DNA from: a virus | DNA length: 39,138 nt | IMG/VR virus record: IMGVR_UViG_3300026272_000002 | Location: 1 to 39,138 of that record | Strand: one strand, 5' to 3' | Shown: piece by piece, positions 4,774 to 36,137 of the stretch | Numbering within the stretch: the stretch's first letter is position 1 | Layout of the letters: every line of letters begins with the position of its first letter | The notes under the pieces: model-generated | What the model was told of the DNA's origin: nothing | The model's database searches: none | The model's input: the letters and a program-made list of their open reading frames with translations, nothing else | Program-made: the position numbers and the translations under genes

Positions 4774-5032
4774 GCCAGTGGTGCGCACGGTATATTTTGC
4801 GCCGACGCGTGGTCGCCACTATATGACTAAAGGCGGCGCTATCAGGGCCGAGGCCCGCGCCCTTCTCAAGAACAAGTTTCCATCGGAGAAAGCGGAGTAT
4901 GAAGAACCCGGCTTTCAGACCTACCCCGGCTTCTACTGGACAGATCTGCCGCGGTCGGACGTTCTGTTTCGCCGCGTATGCCGACTGATCAAGAATTCAA
5001 CGCCACCAGCACCAGGCACTGAGGGAGAGTGA
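4763..5032 (+). CDS. Hypothetical small protein
   Basis: The ATG at 4763 follows GGAGAGGA. It is in frame with the longer track ORF 4718..5032. Confidence 0.6.
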   Translation: MPIKPVVRTVYFAPTRGRHYMTKGGAIRAEARALLKNKFPSEKAEYEEPGFQTYPGFYWTDLPRSDVLFRRVCRLIKNSTPPAPGTEGE

Positions 5033-5254: not shown

Positions 5255-5566
5255 GTGAGCGCGCCGAAAGAAGGAAAGCGAGTGCCGGCCAAAGAGGCTG
5301 CAGCAATTCTTGGAATCGAAGAGCATCTTATCAGTCGGCTGGATGCCGGCGGGCGCTGGATCAAACGGTATAAGCTGACGCGAAAGACACACGTATATGA
5401 CGTCGATTCCCTTTATCTTTACTTAGAATCATGCCAATCGAAACCATTACAAAAGCCGGGCGCAAGCGGCTCCGCTGGACGTTCAACCGGATCATTTCGG
5501 GCCAGCGTGTCCGCCAAACCAAAGTTCTCCCTGCGGGAATATCTACCGCAGAAGCAGACGGTTTAG
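5255..5566 (+). CDS. xis: Excisionase / AlpA-like helix-turn-helix protein (putative Xis)
   Basis: The N-terminal part KRVPAKEAAAILGIEEHLISRLDAGGRWIKRYKL looks like an MerR/excisionase-type HTH. The gene sits immediately upstream of int. The reading frame overlaps the int start by 136 nt, so the real C-terminus is uncertain. Confidence 0.55.
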   Translation: MSAPKEGKRVPAKEAAAILGIEEHLISRLDAGGRWIKRYKLTRKTHVYDVDSLYLYLESCQSKPLQKPGASGSAGRSTGSFRASVSAKPKFSLREYLPQKQTV

Positions 5567-6429
5567 CGCGTGCCTGGGAAGCTGAGATTTACGCGCTGGC
5601 GACCGGCCAGCGGAAAGAGGTTGTGACGATCGGCGATTGCGTTAAGCTGCATGTCGCAGATAAATGCGCTGAATGGAAGGATGCTACCGCGCGCATCGGA
5701 ATTCTGGAAAAGTGGGCTCCCGAGTACAAAGATCAAGACGCGACTGACTTGCATGACTGGTCAAAGAAGTTTGTCGGCTATATGCGAGCGAAGCAGGATA
5801 AGCACGGTAAACCAAAGAATCCGCTTACAGACAGTTCTATCCGCAATGTTTTGGCGTACCTACGGGCAGCGATGAAATACGCATTCAAAGTAGGCAAGCT
5901 TTCTGAGGATCAGACGGCGCGCATGACGATACCGTCAGTCAATAATGAGCGCCACCACTACCCTGATCGGCGGGAGATGCTTCGGATCGCCAGGAAATGC
6001 CGAAACCGCCAGGTACGCGCCGCGATTCGGATCGCCTTCTATTCGGGCATGCGGAAGGCAGAAATATTACGTGCCAAGCGTACCAAGAAGGGATTTTTGT
6101 TGGAAGATACTAAAAACGGTGAACGGCGGATAATCCCCATCCACCCGCGCATTGCTGTTCTGGCACGCAAGATTCGCTTCACGATCGATGAGGAAAAAGT
6201 ATCTGATCAATGGGATATCGCCCGGGAGCTGGCAGGGTATCCGGATACACGATTCCATGACCTGCGACACGGCGCCGCATCAGAGATGATCAACTCAGGC
6301 GTAGACCTATACACAGTCGGCGCTGTACTCGGTCATATGTCGCCGGCATCGACTCGCCGTTATAGCCATTTGGTGACCGACCGATTAGCTGATGCTGTTT
6401 CTAAAATCGGTGGTAAAAAGGGGAAATAG
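5431..6429 (+). CDS. int: Tyrosine recombinase (phage integrase)
   Basis: C-terminal catalytic signature ...HDLRHGAASEMINSGVDLYTVGAVLGHMSPASTRRYSHL (HxxR ... H ... Y), with an upstream Arg in GMRKAEILRAKR. It is followed directly by attP. Confidence 0.92.
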   Translation: MPIETITKAGRKRLRWTFNRIISGQRVRQTKVLPAGISTAEADGLARAWEAEIYALATGQRKEVVTIGDCVKLHVADKCAEWKDATARIGILEKWAPEYKDQDATDLHDWSKKFVGYMRAKQDKHGKPKNPLTDSSIRNVLAYLRAAMKYAFKVGKLSEDQTARMTIPSVNNERHHYPDRREMLRIARKCRNRQVRAAIRIAFYSGMRKAEILRAKRTKKGFLLEDTKNGERRIIPIHPRIAVLARKIRFTIDEEKVSDQWDIARELAGYPDTRFHDLRHGAASEMINSGVDLYTVGAVLGHMSPASTRRYSHLVTDRLADAVSKIGGKKGK

Positions 6430-32506: not shown

Positions 32507-32571
32507 GCGAACCACGCAATCAGAAATAGAATTACGCCAGCCAGGAGGAAGCAAAGAGGGAGGGTATCCAT
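32503..32571 (-). CDS. Micro-ORF, 22-aa hydrophobic peptide (MDTLPLCFLLAGVILFLIAWFA)
   Basis: Hand translated. It is coupled on both sides, with a TGATG overlap to the CII-like stop and an ATGA overlap to the methyltransferase start. Confidence 0.5.
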   Translation of the reverse strand: MDTLPLCFLLAGVILFLIAWFA

Positions 32572-33104
32572 CACGCTGGCTCCTTGCGCATGATTCGCTT
32601 GAGAAGCTTTCCAGAGTCAGACTTGGCGCGAACGCGCAGACGATGAAGCCAATCGTGAATCGTGGGCAGAAGCGCACGAATCTTCGGCTCGATTTCCTGC
32701 ATTTCGCTTTCGGATAGATGCCCGTCAATCAGTGCGTCGGTGGATGCAGACACTGCGGCACCAAATTGCGACATCGCACGGAACACGACGCGCTGGATTT
32801 CTTCCTCGCTGATGTCGCCGCCGTCCGCGTCTGGAATTGGAATGCAAACAAGGCCCAAGCGGTACGCCATCGCATGCAAAGCCGAGAGCGCGTCAGGAAC
32901 GCCAGAACTGTTGCACAGCTCCATGACGACGGCGGCATCCTCAAAGCTGGAATTATTTGCCCTCTCCATCGGCGACAGCTTTTTATAAAGCAGCTTTGGA
33001 TTCATCTCCATGCGATGTGCAAGTGCAGGAATACCGCCTGGATAAGCGCGCGCCGCGTTGTACAGGCAGTCGTGCTGGTCGGTGTCGCCGTATTTGTAGG
33101 TCAT
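32571..33104 (-). CDS. CII-like early regulatory protein (Phage_CP76-type; 177 aa)
   Basis: It is the second gene after cro. ATG 33104 follows AAAGGA. The N-terminal part YNAARAYPGGIPALAHRMEMNPKLLYKKLSP resembles CII/CP76-family regulators (recalled from memory). Confidence 0.55.
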   Translation of the reverse strand: MTYKYGDTDQHDCLYNAARAYPGGIPALAHRMEMNPKLLYKKLSPMERANNSSFEDAAVVMELCNSSGVPDALSALHAMAYRLGLVCIPIPDADGGDISEEEIQRVVFRAMSQFGAAVSASTDALIDGHLSESEMQEIEPKIRALLPTIHDWLHRLRVRAKSDSGKLLKRIMRKEPA

Positions 33105-33188
33105 GGGGAAAATCCTTTTTTTATTCCTGATGCGCAATTGATGCAGTGCGGCTAAAGTTCAGTCATGGAAACTCATGACACGACAAAA

Positions 33189-33457: not shown

Positions 33458-33880
33458 ATGAATACGAAAGGTCGATCAGCGTTTGGATTGCGCTTGGTAC
33501 AGGCAAGAAAACACGCCAAACTCACGCAAGAAGTTGCGGCAAAGCGCGCAGGAATGGCGCAGTCAACGCTTGGGGAATTGGAAATGGAAGGTCAGGGTTC
33601 GACTTTCACTGCTCAGTTGGCAGAGATTTATTCTGTGAACCCCAATTGGCTTGCAACTGGGAGAGGCGAGATGCTTGGAAAGGATGTTGAGGCTGCTCCT
33701 CCCAGAGTGGCTACAGTCCTTCCCATACCGGCACCTGAGAATCAAGAACTCAATGACGCCATCAGGCTTCTTGAGCTATTCTCCCAGGCATCGGCTAACG
33801 GCAAATCATTTATTCTTACGGCGGCCATCAATGCTGAAAAGGCTTCCGGAAGAAAGCGCAGCACCAGTACCCGCGACTAG
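33458..33880 (+). CDS. CI-like repressor, XRE-family HTH, 140 aa, without a peptidase S24 domain
   Basis: HTH motif LTQEVAAKRAGMAQSTLGELE. The short C-terminal region has no Ala-Gly/Ser-Lys autocleavage module. The gene is divergent from cro-like. Confidence 0.8.
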   Translation: MNTKGRSAFGLRLVQARKHAKLTQEVAAKRAGMAQSTLGELEMEGQGSTFTAQLAEIYSVNPNWLATGRGEMLGKDVEAAPPRVATVLPIPAPENQELNDAIRLLELFSQASANGKSFILTAAINAEKASGRKRSTSTRD

Positions 33881-34009
33881 CTTGAGAGGCGCACGATATT
33901 CATGATGGTGTGCCGCCCTGTCCTTAGCCAGCATCAGCAGCATATTCCTATCTGATGCCGACATCCCCCTGAAAGCTGTAATAAGTTCGCTTTCTTGTCT
34001 CTTCTGCAT
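33806..34009 (-). CDS. Small ORF (67 codons) convergent with and overlapping the repressor gene
   Basis: Strong RBS GGGGAGGAAG 5 nt before ATG 34009. Its last 75 nt are antisense to the 3' end of the repressor gene. An SOS box lies 92 nt upstream. Confidence 0.5.
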   Translation of the reverse strand: MQKRQESELITAFRGMSASDRNMLLMLAKDRAAHHHEYRAPLKLVAGTGAALSSGSLFSIDGRRKNK

Positions 34010-34100
34010 ACCGTCTTCCTCCCCTTCGAATTATCAAAATAAGCAAAGACCCACTACTTGCGTGGTTCAAAGCATGATGCCTTTTGGGGAACGAAAGTAG

Positions 34101-34120
34101 TACTGTGTTTACGTACAGTC
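34101..34120. promoter_or_regulatory. SOS (LexA-type) box TACTGTGTTTACGTACAGTC
   Basis: CTGT (34103-06), N8, ACAG (34115-18). It lies in the non-coding immunity region and overlaps a possible plus-strand promoter, TTTACG (34108-13)-16 nt-TAAAAT (34130-35). Confidence 0.55.
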
Positions 34121-34241
34121 TAAATCAATTAAAATCGAAAAACCATGAAATTTTTCATCGGTTATTGATATTGCTCATCTCTTAACGATCTAGCGAATTT
34201 CACCGGCAGAAAATATGCCATGCAAAATATTTTTTAAAAAA

Positions 34242-34257
34242 TATCGGAATACCGCTT
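34242..34257. promoter_or_regulatory. Operator variant TATCGG-aata-CCGCTT
   Basis: CGGAATACCG core identical to 33421-33430. It abuts the -35 hexamer. Confidence 0.5.
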
Positions 34258-34284
34258 GACTTCATTTATCGGTTGTCCGATACT
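34256..34284 (+). promoter_or_regulatory. Early promoter of the recombination/integration operon (PL-like): TTGACT-17 nt-GATACT
   Basis: Hexamers at 34256-61 and 34279-84 with a 17-nt spacer. An operator palindrome fills the spacer and the -10. Confidence 0.6.
34267..34282. promoter_or_regulatory. Operator, perfect palindrome TATCGG-ttgt-CCGATA
   Basis: Same half-sites as 33396-33411. It overlaps the -10. Confidence 0.65.
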
Positions 34285-34340
34285 TCAATCACACCAAGCG
34301 AAATACACAAATCGCAACCAATAACCAGATGGAGTTGAGC

Positions 34341-34679: not shown

Positions 34680-34725
34680 TACACCAAACGCAAAGCACCG
34701 CGCAACTAGATAGATGGAGATGGAG

Positions 34726-34977
34726 ATGGATCACGGAATTCTGAACGTGCCGCTGGCTAAGCGCGGAAACATCGATGCACAGATCGACGCATACAAAGCG
34801 AAGTTGGCCAAAGAAGAAACAAAAGAGCCGTTGCGCAATGGCGTTCTTCATCTCTGCAAAGGCGGTATGCCACGTGTGTTCGCTAACGCAAAACAAGCGG
34901 AAGCTTCTGCGCAACGTACTGGCGGTGAAACATATCAGTCAGCCCAGTCGCGCCGATTCATGGTGCGTTTTGCCTAA
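34726..34977 (+). CDS. Hypothetical early protein (83 aa)
   Basis: Third in-frame ATG, 5 nt after GGAGA. It is preceded by the 12-nt GATAGATGGAGA that also precedes the next gene. Confidence 0.65.
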   Translation: MDHGILNVPLAKRGNIDAQIDAYKAKLAKEETKEPLRNGVLHLCKGGMPRVFANAKQAEASAQRTGGETYQSAQSRRFMVRFA

Positions 34978-35002
34978 CCCTACCTGATAGATGGAGAGCG
35001 AG

Positions 35003-35146
35003 ATGATCTGCGCAACTTGCGGCGGCTACGTAATCTGGAAAGGCCCATGGTCAAACCTGACTCACACCGAATGCCAAGACTGCGGTCGTCTCAACAATCA
35101 GATTTCGGACTCGATTGAGGACGATGACGAAGAGACTGACGAATGA
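35003..35146 (+). CDS. Zinc-ribbon micro-protein (47 aa; CxxC...CxxC, acidic tail)
   Basis: Hand translation: MICATCGGYVIWKGPWSNLTHTECQDCGRLNNQISDSIEDDDEETDE. It is preceded by GATAGATGGAGA and is below the track cutoff. Confidence 0.6.
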   Translation: MICATCGGYVIWKGPWSNLTHTECQDCGRLNNQISDSIEDDDEETDE

Positions 35147-35704
35147 CCTGCCAATACGCAAACCAAACACTGGCCTAGACCGAGAGGTTCGAAGCGCAAG
35201 CCGGAATCAGTGTCCGGCACCTTTGGCAGCATACGTCATCTGGCCGTCATTCGACACACCAGATCAGAAACTGCACGTGACCATTCGAAAGAATGGCAAC
35301 ACGTCTGAGGATTTCAGTTGTAACCGCCTCGCTCAATCGTATCCGGAAGTAATTCCGGTGTCATGGGGCCGAAGCCCTCAGTCGTGTTGACAGTTATTTT
35401 GGCGAAACGGCCTCAGCCGAAAAGGCCGCAACTTTATATGGAGGCCATATGGACAAGCGACCACGCGCATAACAAACGTAAACCTCCGCCGCGATAGTGC
35501 GGAGGGCCAATATCTCATCCTTTGAGCACCAGCATGCTGGATCGCAAACTCTGTGACGGAGTGGGATGAGATGTTGGCAACCGCATGACTGGATCTGATC
35601 GGCTAGTACCCGATCCGTTTAAAGGACAAGCCCACGGCTGACTCAGTACGTAGCGGTGAAGGTAGCCCGGTCTGCCAACTTCAATTTATAGGGAGAGAAG
35701 AAAA
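35147..35704 (+). ncRNA. Candidate large structured non-coding RNA region (class unknown)
   Basis: A 558-nt segment without a credible ORF in a genome that is otherwise gap-free. It holds about 12 perfect 5-7-bp helices, two of them capped by GNRA tetraloops (GAAA 35287-90, GUAA 35349-52), and two domain-closing 7-bp helices. Confidence 0.45.
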
Positions 35705-35791
35705 ATGCAAAGCGCTCTTGTTTCAGCTGTTCTCGTTCTGATGTCGACCGTCGACTACCTGCTTGATTTTGCCTTGATGGTGCTGCCATGA
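35705..35791 (+). CDS. Micro-ORF, 28-aa hydrophobic peptide (MQSALVSAVLVLMSTVDYLLDFALMVLP)
   Basis: GGGAGAGAAG RBS. The stop overlaps the next ATG (ATGA). Confidence 0.5.
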   Translation: MQSALVSAVLVLMSTVDYLLDFALMVLP

Positions 35792-35904
35792 AGACGATTG
35801 CAATCATCTTGATCCTTCTTTCGGTGTACGTAGCTGGCATTGCAACGCCGTTCGTGTACTTCGCCTGCGCCGATGACATTCAAGTTGCTGGAGCCGCCAA
35901 ATGA
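35788..35904 (+). CDS. Micro-ORF, 38-aa single-TM peptide (MKTIAIILILLSVYVAGIATPFVYFACADDIQVAGAAK)
   Basis: ATGA overlaps on both sides. Confidence 0.5.
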   Translation: MKTIAIILILLSVYVAGIATPFVYFACADDIQVAGAAK

Positions 35905-36137
35905 AGCCCTACACCCGCTTCCTCTTCCGCCGCGCACGCCGCGTTGCCCTGATCTGGATTGCTGCGCTTGGAGTTGCATACGGCCTAGGCGCAATGAAGG
36001 GCATCGAAGAACGCAAGAACGCTGCCGCAGCCAGCGAAGCAAAGATGGCAAAGCGCATCGGCGACAAATGGCCGGAGCTGCTGAGCAAAGCTGAATATAT
36101 GACCGGGATGCCGGTAACGCAAACTGAAAGGAAATGA
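35901..36137 (+). CDS. Small membrane-anchored protein (78 aa, N-terminal TM)
   Basis: ATGA overlap upstream. TM segment VALIWIAALGVAYGLGAM. Confidence 0.65.
   Translation: MKPYTRFLFRRARRVALIWIAALGVAYGLGAMKGIEERKNAAAASEAKMAKRIGDKWPELLSKAEYMTGMPVTQTERK

Follow-up and report, generated by a model that had tools for sequence, protein, structure and literature searches.

The stretch of viral DNA analysed here (the window: positions 1 to 39,138 of IMG/VR virus record IMGVR_UViG_3300026272_000002, 39,138 nucleotides (nt)) contains a 558-nt segment, at 35147-35704 on the plus strand, in which no gene is called. It lies between an open reading frame (ORF) for a 51-amino-acid (aa) Zn-ribbon protein (34991-35146) on its left and a micro-ORF that starts at 35705, the first of three coupled micro-ORFs on its 3′ side (35705-35791, 35788-35904 and 35901-36137). 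The operon to which these features belong begins with a gene for a helix-turn-helix (HTH) regulator (33458-33880) and continues through small ORFs, the RNA segment and the micro-ORFs to genes for a 383-aa protein, a 330-aa protein resembling a single-strand annealing protein (SSAP), a YqaJ exonuclease and SSB. This layout resembles that of the lambda PL operon, and we infer that the segment is transcribed together with an early operon of this kind. The segment is real, non-coding and functional at the level of RNA. It is a mosaic of RNA modules, and about 200 nt of it (35483-35679) is one copy of an RNA family without a match in Rfam.

A preliminary description, made from the letters of the sequence alone, had called the segment a functional structured RNA rather than decayed coding sequence, and this view is upheld by the lack of protein homology, the lack of any Rfam match and strong covariation. 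Its claim that the segment is non-coding agrees with public gene callers, which likewise left the identical contigs uncalled at this position. The sole ORF of at least 60 aa (35115-35390) has no Pfam or PHROG match and no true homologue among 1.84 billion representative proteins, the lone match being an artefact with nine tandem repeats in the target, and the smaller ORFs on both strands of the segment have no PHROG match. Moreover, none of the fetched relatives carries an intact gene at this position, so that a decayed gene is ruled out, and the indels among relatives are not multiples of three. The claim that this is the largest gap is roughly right: in the public gene calls listed for the locus of ~10 kb around it, no other uncalled stretch is as long as the one of 754 nt found here, but a mechanical six-frame scan for stretches free of ORFs of at least 60 aa places 35391-35642 (252 nt) second, behind the AT-rich stretch 34010-34265.

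The plus strand of the segment has a minimum free energy (MFE) of -200.4 kcal/mol, compared with -172.4 ± 7.2 kcal/mol for dinucleotide shuffles (z = -3.9, with 0 of 100 shuffles as good). Because the minus strand gives a similar value (z = -3.7), folding energy alone cannot pick the strand. All helices listed in the preliminary description are present in the sequence after one correction, the GUAA-capped hairpin being formed by 35344-49 and 35354-59, one position from where it had been placed. The Rfam scan that it had suggested was run, and no known RNA class matches the segment. None of the 4227 models of Rfam 15 found a match anywhere in the window at gathering thresholds, and a search of 34900-35900 at E values up to 10 returned only a chance microRNA match (15.8 bits). 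The Rfam model of the C4 antisense RNA and P4 CI RNA does not match the segment, no tRNA or tmRNA was found in the window by ARAGORN or Rfam models, and blastn against 50,697 phage records gave no match, even for the core domain described below taken alone at E values up to 10. A text search of the literature found the conserved 12-mers in no relevant paper. A likeness by eye between the junction strings of the core and Y RNA or the 5′ and 3′ ends of tmRNA was discarded, since it has no model support and involves a different strand topology.

Relatives were reached through contigs encoding homologues of the 383-aa protein, which occur in prophages of Paraburkholderia, Burkholderia, Cupriavidus, Pandoraea and Telluria. 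Single-protein queries against viral and genome collections gave no relatives, and public contigs with the same protein were uninformative because they do not differ from the window at all (100% identity). Between relatives the flanking protein has only 49-55% identity, yet the gap shows conservation at the nucleotide level: positions 35571-35703 are ~74% identical to the relative L006, and positions 35479-35513 are 97% identical to it. Pattern scans starting from conserved strings led to a covariance model, R1, with which the fetched loci were searched. The members of R1 are 33 distinct phage or prophage contigs from Burkholderiales-type hosts, two of them located in metagenome-assembled genomes of Oxalobacteraceae and Noviherbaspirillum. 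The core of the window scores 102 bits against this model, and two members (L034 and L041) were recovered by the model alone, in loci fetched via the flanking protein. In about 20 of the 33 loci, genes for an SSAP (RecT, ERF or other) and YqaJ lie 0.6-4.2 kb downstream of the element, always in the same orientation as the element itself. In sum, the family is conserved, folds in a complex way, keeps a constant position upstream of recombination genes, and has two covarying helices that exclude each other.

The core domain, 107 nt at 35573-35679 on the plus strand, was defined by the covariance model and by covariation counts, and has the shape of a long rod, interrupted by a 12x12 internal loop and forking at its tip into two hairpins. 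At its base is P1, an 11-bp helix between 35573-83 and 35668-79 in which C35672 is bulged. The strand J1/2 (CAUGACUGGAUCU, 35584-96) leads from P1 to P2 (6 bp, 35597-602 with 35610-15), whose usual loop is CUAGUAC, and directly after P2 begins the variable hairpin P3 (35616-50; base pairs CGU/ACG), which folds independently in isolated segments. The returning strand J3/1 (35651-67) reads UAGCG-GUGAAGGUAGCC, five variable nt being followed by GUGAAGGUAGCC; it pairs antiparallel with J1/2, and together the two strands form the irregular, G.A-rich and near-invariant internal loop.

When homologous regions were collected and examined for covariation, as had been proposed at the outset, compensatory changes were found in several of the suggested helices, including 35573-79/35673-79, now seen to be the outer part of P1, and 35597-602/35610-15, which is P2. 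Standard pairs occupy 91.3% of pair cells in the 33 sequences, versus 31-47% when partners are slid by one to three columns, and 18 of the 25 core pairs show changes on both sides; none of 500 shuffles matched the observed covariation values. P1 and the adjacent junction pairs are 97% paired, with double changes in all 11 pairs of P1. Within the junction, whose strings were partly fixed or only partly freed in the search patterns, the pair C12-G1′ is C-G in 27 and U-A in 5 sequences (position 1′ was left free by the pattern), C6-G7′ is C-G in 30 and U-A in 3 with no mismatch, and U7.G6′ is U.G in 31 and C-G in 2. The pairs A5-U8′ and U3.G10′ are invariant, as are the G.A/A.G oppositions 4/9′, 8/5′ and 10/3′, and opposition 9/4′ is G.A in 31 and A.A in 2. 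G.U pairs are frequent in the core, with two G.U/U.G pairs invariant or nearly so, and the per-pair table for P1 holds about 32 G.U cells versus about 14 non-pairs of any kind. These counts and the co-orientation with recombination genes point to an RNA of the plus (operon) strand.

Two observations concern the loop of P2. A pseudoknot between CUAGUAC and either ACUGG or GUACGUAG was considered and dropped, because it is not kept in the L006 and L034 variants (GCGG loop) or in the L016 and L021 types. The near-identical cores of L132 (9700-9807) and L134 (3905-4012) differ in that this loop is UUCGAAC, a perfect T-loop sequence, in the former and CUAGUUC in the latter.

Immediately upstream of the core is a leader composed of a hairpin and a stalk, both on the plus strand. 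The hairpin, P0 (35483-35505; CCUCCGC-C-GC-GAUA-GU-GCGGAGG), directly abuts X, the 5′ strand of the stalk (GCCAAUAUCUCAUCCU, 35506-35521), which is the same word as the 3′ strand of P1. The 3′ strand of the stalk, X′ (35563-35578), consists of the 10 nt before P1 and the first 6-7 nt of P1, its last 6 nt in the window (35573-78) being the outer 5′ strand of that helix. A variable insert (35522-35562) with the CCAGCAUGCUGG hairpin (35529-35540) and a second small hairpin separates the two strands. Among relatives the insert measures 40 to about 230 nt, X being found 40-230 nt upstream of its partner.

Over 34-35 nt, P0 has 97% identity with its counterparts in L006, in L011 and in the L006-like contigs L010 and L012. 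Among the loci in general its stem sequences differ, and many of its loops appear C-GNRA-G-like on reading the folds. A hairpin ends exactly one base before X in 24 of 28 family loci, and a hairpin with a dG of -5 kcal/mol or lower ends within 2 nt of X in 27 of 28, versus 36% at random positions. The GC-rich helix noted earlier at 35483-89/35499-505 is P0 and has a positionally equivalent counterpart in 24-27 of the 28 loci. The stalk itself comprises 16 bp in the window (35506-21 with 35563-78; -28.0 kcal/mol) and is present in 29 of 31 loci. Its mean duplex energy is -26.9 kcal/mol with the true partners versus -17.2 kcal/mol when partners are exchanged between loci, and none of 5000 permutations did as well as the true partners. 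At least three Watson-Crick pair types occur at each leader position, and all four types at seven of ten. A helix that had been proposed for 35514-20/35564-70 shares this covariation and is the middle of the stalk.

Because the end of X′ doubles as the 5′ strand of P1 (35573-78), the stalk and the complete P1 are mutually exclusive, and since both covary, both must form at some time. The preliminary description was therefore correct that mutually exclusive pairings exist and that a word is reused, but the actual competitor of P1 is X (35506-21) and not 35223-29. For 35476-35704 the stalk state is the MFE structure, at -86.5 kcal/mol versus -71.8 kcal/mol for a forced P1 (+P2) state, in a nearest-neighbour model that takes no account of the conserved loop, tertiary contacts or a partner.

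Some features of the leader stand apart from this argument. The stalk insert of L015 shows a GGUUCGAAUCC T-arm and, by eye, a cloverleaf-like outline, without a Rfam tRNA match; a comparison of L015 280-680 with Rfam gave nothing meaningful. An ORF at 35363-35497 was considered as a leader peptide and rejected, since it has no Shine-Dalgarno (SD) sequence, is not conserved in L011 and has no equivalent at other P0 types. In the window and in L006 (3910-3990) this ORF ends in KPPPR followed by a UAG stop inside the P0 loop, and the loop of the other common P0 type (GCCGGAGACGUAACCGGC) also holds a stop triplet, UAA. The presence of stop codons in the loop is probably a coincidence, although a polyproline stall at the end of the ORF, if it occurred, would sit on X.

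The ends of P1 carry a further signature. Classical determinants of bacterial RNase P substrates are U(-1), G(+1) and an RCC(A) tail. At P1, base -1 is U in 28 of 33 loci and base +1 is G in nearly all, and of the three bases past the helix, the first is A in 23 of the 33, the second is C in 18 and the third is C in 20. RNase P cleaves hairpin-like phage RNAs, for example C4 of phages P1 and P7 and CI of phage P4 (PMC5499578). One locus, L011, has the identical P0 together with an X:X′ stalk (-21.2 kcal/mol) before a tRNA-like gene that stands in place of the core. This gene (2297-2374) scores 27.7 bits against the Rfam tRNA model, just below threshold, and the 5′ strand of its acceptor stem is overlapped by the stalk. 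A second tRNA gene just upstream (1995-2101; 39.3 bits) has a 43-nt insertion in the anticodon region, such that P0 is flanked by both genes, just upstream of xis/int; ARAGORN calls neither. The occurrence of the leader before a tRNA-like gene shows that it is a portable module placed ahead of stable, helix-closed RNAs. The same contig also carries a DUF3800-IX RNA on the minus strand (4917-4988; 41.9 bits).

The interpretation that we favor, with a probability of roughly 0.4, is that the core may be a stable small RNA that is processed out of the early operon transcript and acts in trans. There is precedent for such an origin, as C4 RNA of phages P1 and P7, CI RNA of phage P4 and DicF are all made from their operon transcripts. 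In this scheme the stalk would form first during transcription and would hold the core open and unfolded. Endonucleolytic processing would then free the core as a stable RNA of ~107 nt, the likely enzymes being RNase III acting on the stalk and/or RNase P acting at the U35572/G35573 junction of P1, with the A-C-C-like 3′ tail as an aid. Once freed, the RNA could bind a conserved host factor in trans through its conserved internal loop.

Several observations weigh against this interpretation. An exact RCC tail is found in only 10 of 33 loci, and the tail of the window itself is UUCA rather than RCCA, which makes the RNase P-type signature weaker in this phage. No promoter or terminator brackets the element, save for a terminator in L020. 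As the stalk state is favored by ~15 kcal/mol here, P1 needs tertiary contacts, a protein or cleavage in order to form. The apparent invariance of the junction is partly a matter of construction, because the search patterns fixed parts of it. Finally, on reading the flanks, an ORF with a strong SD sequence starts 20-26 nt past P1 in about 9-10 of the 33 loci, an arrangement that equally fits a cis-acting leader.

This last point leads to the main alternative, which we regard as less likely though well worth weighing, namely that the element is a cis-acting conformational switch. The core would serve as an aptamer, and a ligand or host protein would stabilize P1 against the stalk, so as to set the translation, stability or Rho-dependent read-through of the delayed-early genes downstream on the same mRNA. 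The core does have the makings of a conserved aptamer with covarying helices, and its near-invariant junction of about 25 nt is of the kind seen in binding pockets. Two covarying, mutually exclusive helices are what such a switch would use, and the preference for the stalk state when no stabilizer is present would suit it as well, as would the C/A-rich unstructured sequence that follows P1 in many loci. In addition, L020 has an intrinsic terminator (GCCGCCCUCUGAGGCGGC followed by UUUUU; within 1975-2060 as oriented) 15 nt past the core. However, a systematic terminator after the core was rejected: a direct one is found in L020 only, and in five other loci the core is followed, 163-360 nt further on, by weaker terminator-like hairpins. 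Pairing of an anti-SD type by the pyrimidine-rich 5′ flank of P1 was likewise rejected (-10.55 kcal/mol for matched versus -10.44 kcal/mol for unmatched sequences; p = 0.40). Thus neither a terminator nor an SD-sequestering helix serves as an expression platform; a competitor helix exists, but it lies upstream of the aptamer, unlike in usual platforms. The ORFs directly downstream are also unrelated between loci (a 28-aa peptide, a Zn-ribbon protein, a 295-aa enzyme, a methyltransferase and others), instead of forming a coherent set of regulated genes, and a switch would leave the leader and tRNA-like gene of L011 unexplained. In L020 the gene after the terminator begins with a C5-methyltransferase-like motif (LFAGAGG).

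Less probable still is that the region encodes one large, multi-domain "ornate" RNA of 300-800 nt, similar to GOLLD or ROOL, in which variable 5′ domains would precede a conserved 3′ domain and tRNA-like parts would be embedded. ORF listings show an ORF-poor region of about 300-800 nt around the core in every locus examined, the whole 558 nt folds better than its shuffles, and tRNA-like inserts or neighbours are present in L015 and L011. The GNRA-type loops of P0 and the G.A-rich internal loop could be tetraloop and receptor partners. A further argument comes from the 5′ part of the segment, where nhmmer or blastn and alignments identify a module A (35165-35305, plus strand) with ~69% identity to L034 1398-1550 and L005 570-720. 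Its first hairpin, H1 (35200-35218), has a C-G to A-U change in L034. The second, H2 (35238-35264), is AUCUGG/CCAGAU in the window versus ACUUGCU/AGCAAGU in L005, GGCAAGU in L034 and GCUUGUU/AGCAAGC in L006, and thus shows compensatory changes at three positions with L006 included. A conserved linker (CAGAAACUGCAC, 35265-35276) leads to H3 (35275-35304), a GAAA-capped two-part hairpin that is identical in L034 save for one U.G and is replaced by another hairpin in L005. Three helices of the preliminary description (35201-05/35213-17, 35238-43/35259-64 and the GAAA-capped two-part stem) thereby gain compensatory changes, but because these come from only 3-4 sequences, covariation in module A is suggestive and not conclusive. 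Its domain-closing helix 35148-54/35223-29 and the alternative pairing 35223-29/35672-78 fared differently: no equivalent of either exists where L034 and L005 are homologous to the window.

Although a single RNA of 558 nt is possible, its parts behave as independent units. L005 has module A and a second P1-closed module without the core; L034 combines both of these modules with the core; in L006 the core is accompanied by the stalk, P0 and, from module A, H2 alone; and L011 has the leader only. It is this separate occurrence in different phages that identifies the region as a mosaic of modules, and a single conserved RNA of more than 500 nt is not what the loci contain. No long-range helix between the 5′ and 3′ parts is conserved, and no Rfam model of GOLLD, ROOL or another large RNA finds a match in the window. 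The middle stretch (35306-35475, plus strand) has the local hairpins 35344-49/35354-59 (GUAA loop) and 35408-13/35423-28, as well as the GGAGG (35440-44) that had been proposed as a competitor of the P0 stem, and no homologous sequence in any fetched locus. A search of viral contigs for the 5′-module pattern GTCCGGC...CAGAAACTGCAC yielded only chance matches in coding DNA. The second helix-closed module, GUUGG...GAAUGCGCAGGCUGAUGCGCA...GCCGGAGAUCAGUGCCGGC-CACCAAC, is located at ~1600-1725 in L034, ~1015-1115 in L005 and ~598-730 on the reverse strand of L014. The loop of its internal hairpin (AGAUCAGUG) resembles the H1 loop of the window (AAUCAGUGU, 35205-35213), a recurrence that hints at a repeated protein-binding hairpin.

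A self-cleaving ribozyme or other catalytic RNA that processes the polycistronic early transcript, with the internal loop as its active site, would account for the roughly 25 near-invariant nt flanked by covarying helices, and several self-cleaving classes typically occur in mid-operon in phages. We nevertheless consider this improbable to a high degree, given that models for hammerhead, twister, twister-sister, pistol, hatchet, HDV-like and glmS ribozymes and for group I and group II introns do not match at E values up to 10, that no candidate cleavage site is identifiable, and that the architecture is unlike any known class. The idea that there is no RNA function at all, and that the segment is a decayed gene, a DNA-level site (an origin, a recombination boundary or an array of protein-binding sites) or a set of chance hairpins, can draw on the near-equal folding of the minus strand and on short intergenic blocks conserved in diverged phages (34681-34720 and the 31-nt P0 block) that resemble mosaic boundaries, but it is already largely refuted and scarcely credible, because pairing is kept through two-sided changes at dozens of positions, because the G.U pairs that are tolerated or nearly invariant would turn into A.C mismatches if the opposite strand or a DNA cruciform were the functional form, and because there are neither protein homologues nor relatives with an intact gene here.

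The wider surroundings of the element can be described briefly. The window is matched at 100% identity by two public metagenome contigs, and the identical 42-kb contig (ENA ERZ27311005 k141_193531) spans its ends, joining 39138 to 1 with an overlap of ~107 nt; the window is therefore the complete genome of a phage in circularly permuted form. Past the permutation point the early operon goes on with a gene for a RusA-like protein (430-1122) and, further along, an integrase gene (5431-6429). On the other side of the operon is a divergent CII-like gene (32571-33137, minus strand). The AT-rich region at about 34000-34300 (GC 0.34-0.41) probably holds, within 34010-34265, the promoter and operators for the genes preceding the RNA. 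The distance from the element to the putative promoter region is about 1.3-1.7 kb in the window, and in L005 the element follows immediately. A terminator-like hairpin with a T-run (34949-34967) lies within the end of an 87-aa ORF, ~180 nt 5′ of the segment. The 40-nt intergenic block at 34681-34720 is 100% identical to L006 2572-2611 despite differing flanking genes; it terminates in the ribosome-binding box GAUAGAUGGAGA, which is repeated before the next ORF as CUGAUAGAUGGAGAG at ~34985 (34985-35000), and the block may be a common translation-initiation or mosaic-boundary sequence. In the L006 phage group a gene for an HNH_3-type homing endonuclease (L006 3374-3850) is inserted directly 5′ of the RNA region; neither the window nor L034 has such a gene at the equivalent position.

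On the 3′ side, the SD sequence GGGAGAG and the ATG of the first micro-ORF (35691-35707, plus strand) lie 25 nt past P1. The products of the three micro-ORFs (35705-36137) are small hydrophobic peptides of 28, 38 and 78 aa, which may be membrane-active and similar to Kil or Icd. A 60-aa homologue of the 78-aa product (MKPYTRFL...) is encoded at the equivalent position in L006 (4798-4980). No boxA/boxB pair is conserved among the loci. A boxA-like GCGCUCUUG at 35713-21, inside the first micro-ORF, is not found at the corresponding place in L006 and is probably a chance match.

Taken further, the core and its gating stalk would represent a new phage RNA device, either a surrogate in the position of a tRNA that is excised by RNase P or RNase III and whose loop captures a host factor, or a new ligand-sensing switch or ribozyme that times the recombination and integration genes. 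We hold this broader proposal only tentatively. Candidates for the host factor would include a nuclease involved in defence, an enzyme that processes tRNA or other RNA, and a transcription factor. If the proposal is true, the family would be a newly recognized kind of functional RNA, restricted to temperate Burkholderiales phages. Structured RNAs of phage early operons, such as nut, put, C4, CI and DicF, each revealed a regulatory principle, and to our knowledge very few are known outside enterobacterial phages. With at least 33 members, clear covariation, a binding-site-like loop and a built-in competitor helix, the family is a directly testable system, and its model, new to RNA databases, can be used to annotate prophages of Burkholderiales as well as viromes from soil or bogs.

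Among known systems, the put RNAs of HK022 and the nut sites of lambda resemble the element in being structured RNAs of a temperate-phage early operon located upstream of recombination genes. However, the element is not directly after the promoter in most loci, its architecture differs, and it has neither conserved boxA/boxB sequences nor systematic downstream terminators. With riboswitches and attenuators it shares a covarying multi-helix junction, a near-invariant core and a mutually exclusive alternative helix, but here the competitor is upstream, the downstream genes are heterogeneous, and neither a conserved terminator nor SD sequestration is found. GOLLD and ROOL also sit near tRNAs in prophages, and they are similar in being borne by prophages, in having variable 5′ and conserved 3′ parts, and in their tRNA-like neighbours or inserts; in this case, however, the conserved unit is about 200 nt, the other modules are separable, and no model matches.

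DicF, from the dicB operon of the Qin prophage, is released from a polycistronic transcript by host RNases. Like it, the segment is non-coding, lies amid the genes of a prophage operon and has small, possibly toxic ORFs nearby. However, DicF is a short, Hfq-dependent base-pairing small RNA without a conserved complex fold, and the segment has no sequence or model similarity to it. The stalks cut by RNase III in rRNA and tRNA operons and in T7 and lambda early mRNAs provide another parallel, because the leader here forms a duplex of ~16 bp with the 5′ end of the mature RNA that encloses a variable hairpin insert, and L011 has the same stalk before a tRNA-like gene. Nevertheless, the stalk is shorter than classic two-turn substrates, its partner is only upstream rather than on both flanks, and cleavage here is predicted.

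Finally, the element recalls C4 and CI, which are small structured RNAs from the leader or interior of a phage early operon. They are stable, measure about 80 nt, owe their 5′ ends to RNase P and confer immunity. In these RNAs a middle segment is complementary to upstream and downstream segments (a1b1/a′b′/a2b2 in phage P1; seqA/seqB/seqC in phage P4). The same relation is present here, in that X′ is complementary to X and in part to the 3′ strand of P1 (35674-79), although the geometry differs. RNase P acts on the hairpin-like substrates of C4 and CI (PMC5499578), and here there is the indirect signature of U(-1)/G(+1) and an A-C-C-like tail. In contrast, the rod-shaped fold of the element, with its 12x12 internal loop and the fork at its tip, is different and is not matched by the C4 model, its complementary partners open and close the terminal helix of the RNA itself rather than target sites at a ribosome-binding site or terminator, and this phage also has protein regulators (the HTH protein and the CII-like protein). 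As far as can be told, the family, its fold and its toggle between stalk and P1 are new, whereas a processed or regulatory RNA in a phage early operon is of a known kind.

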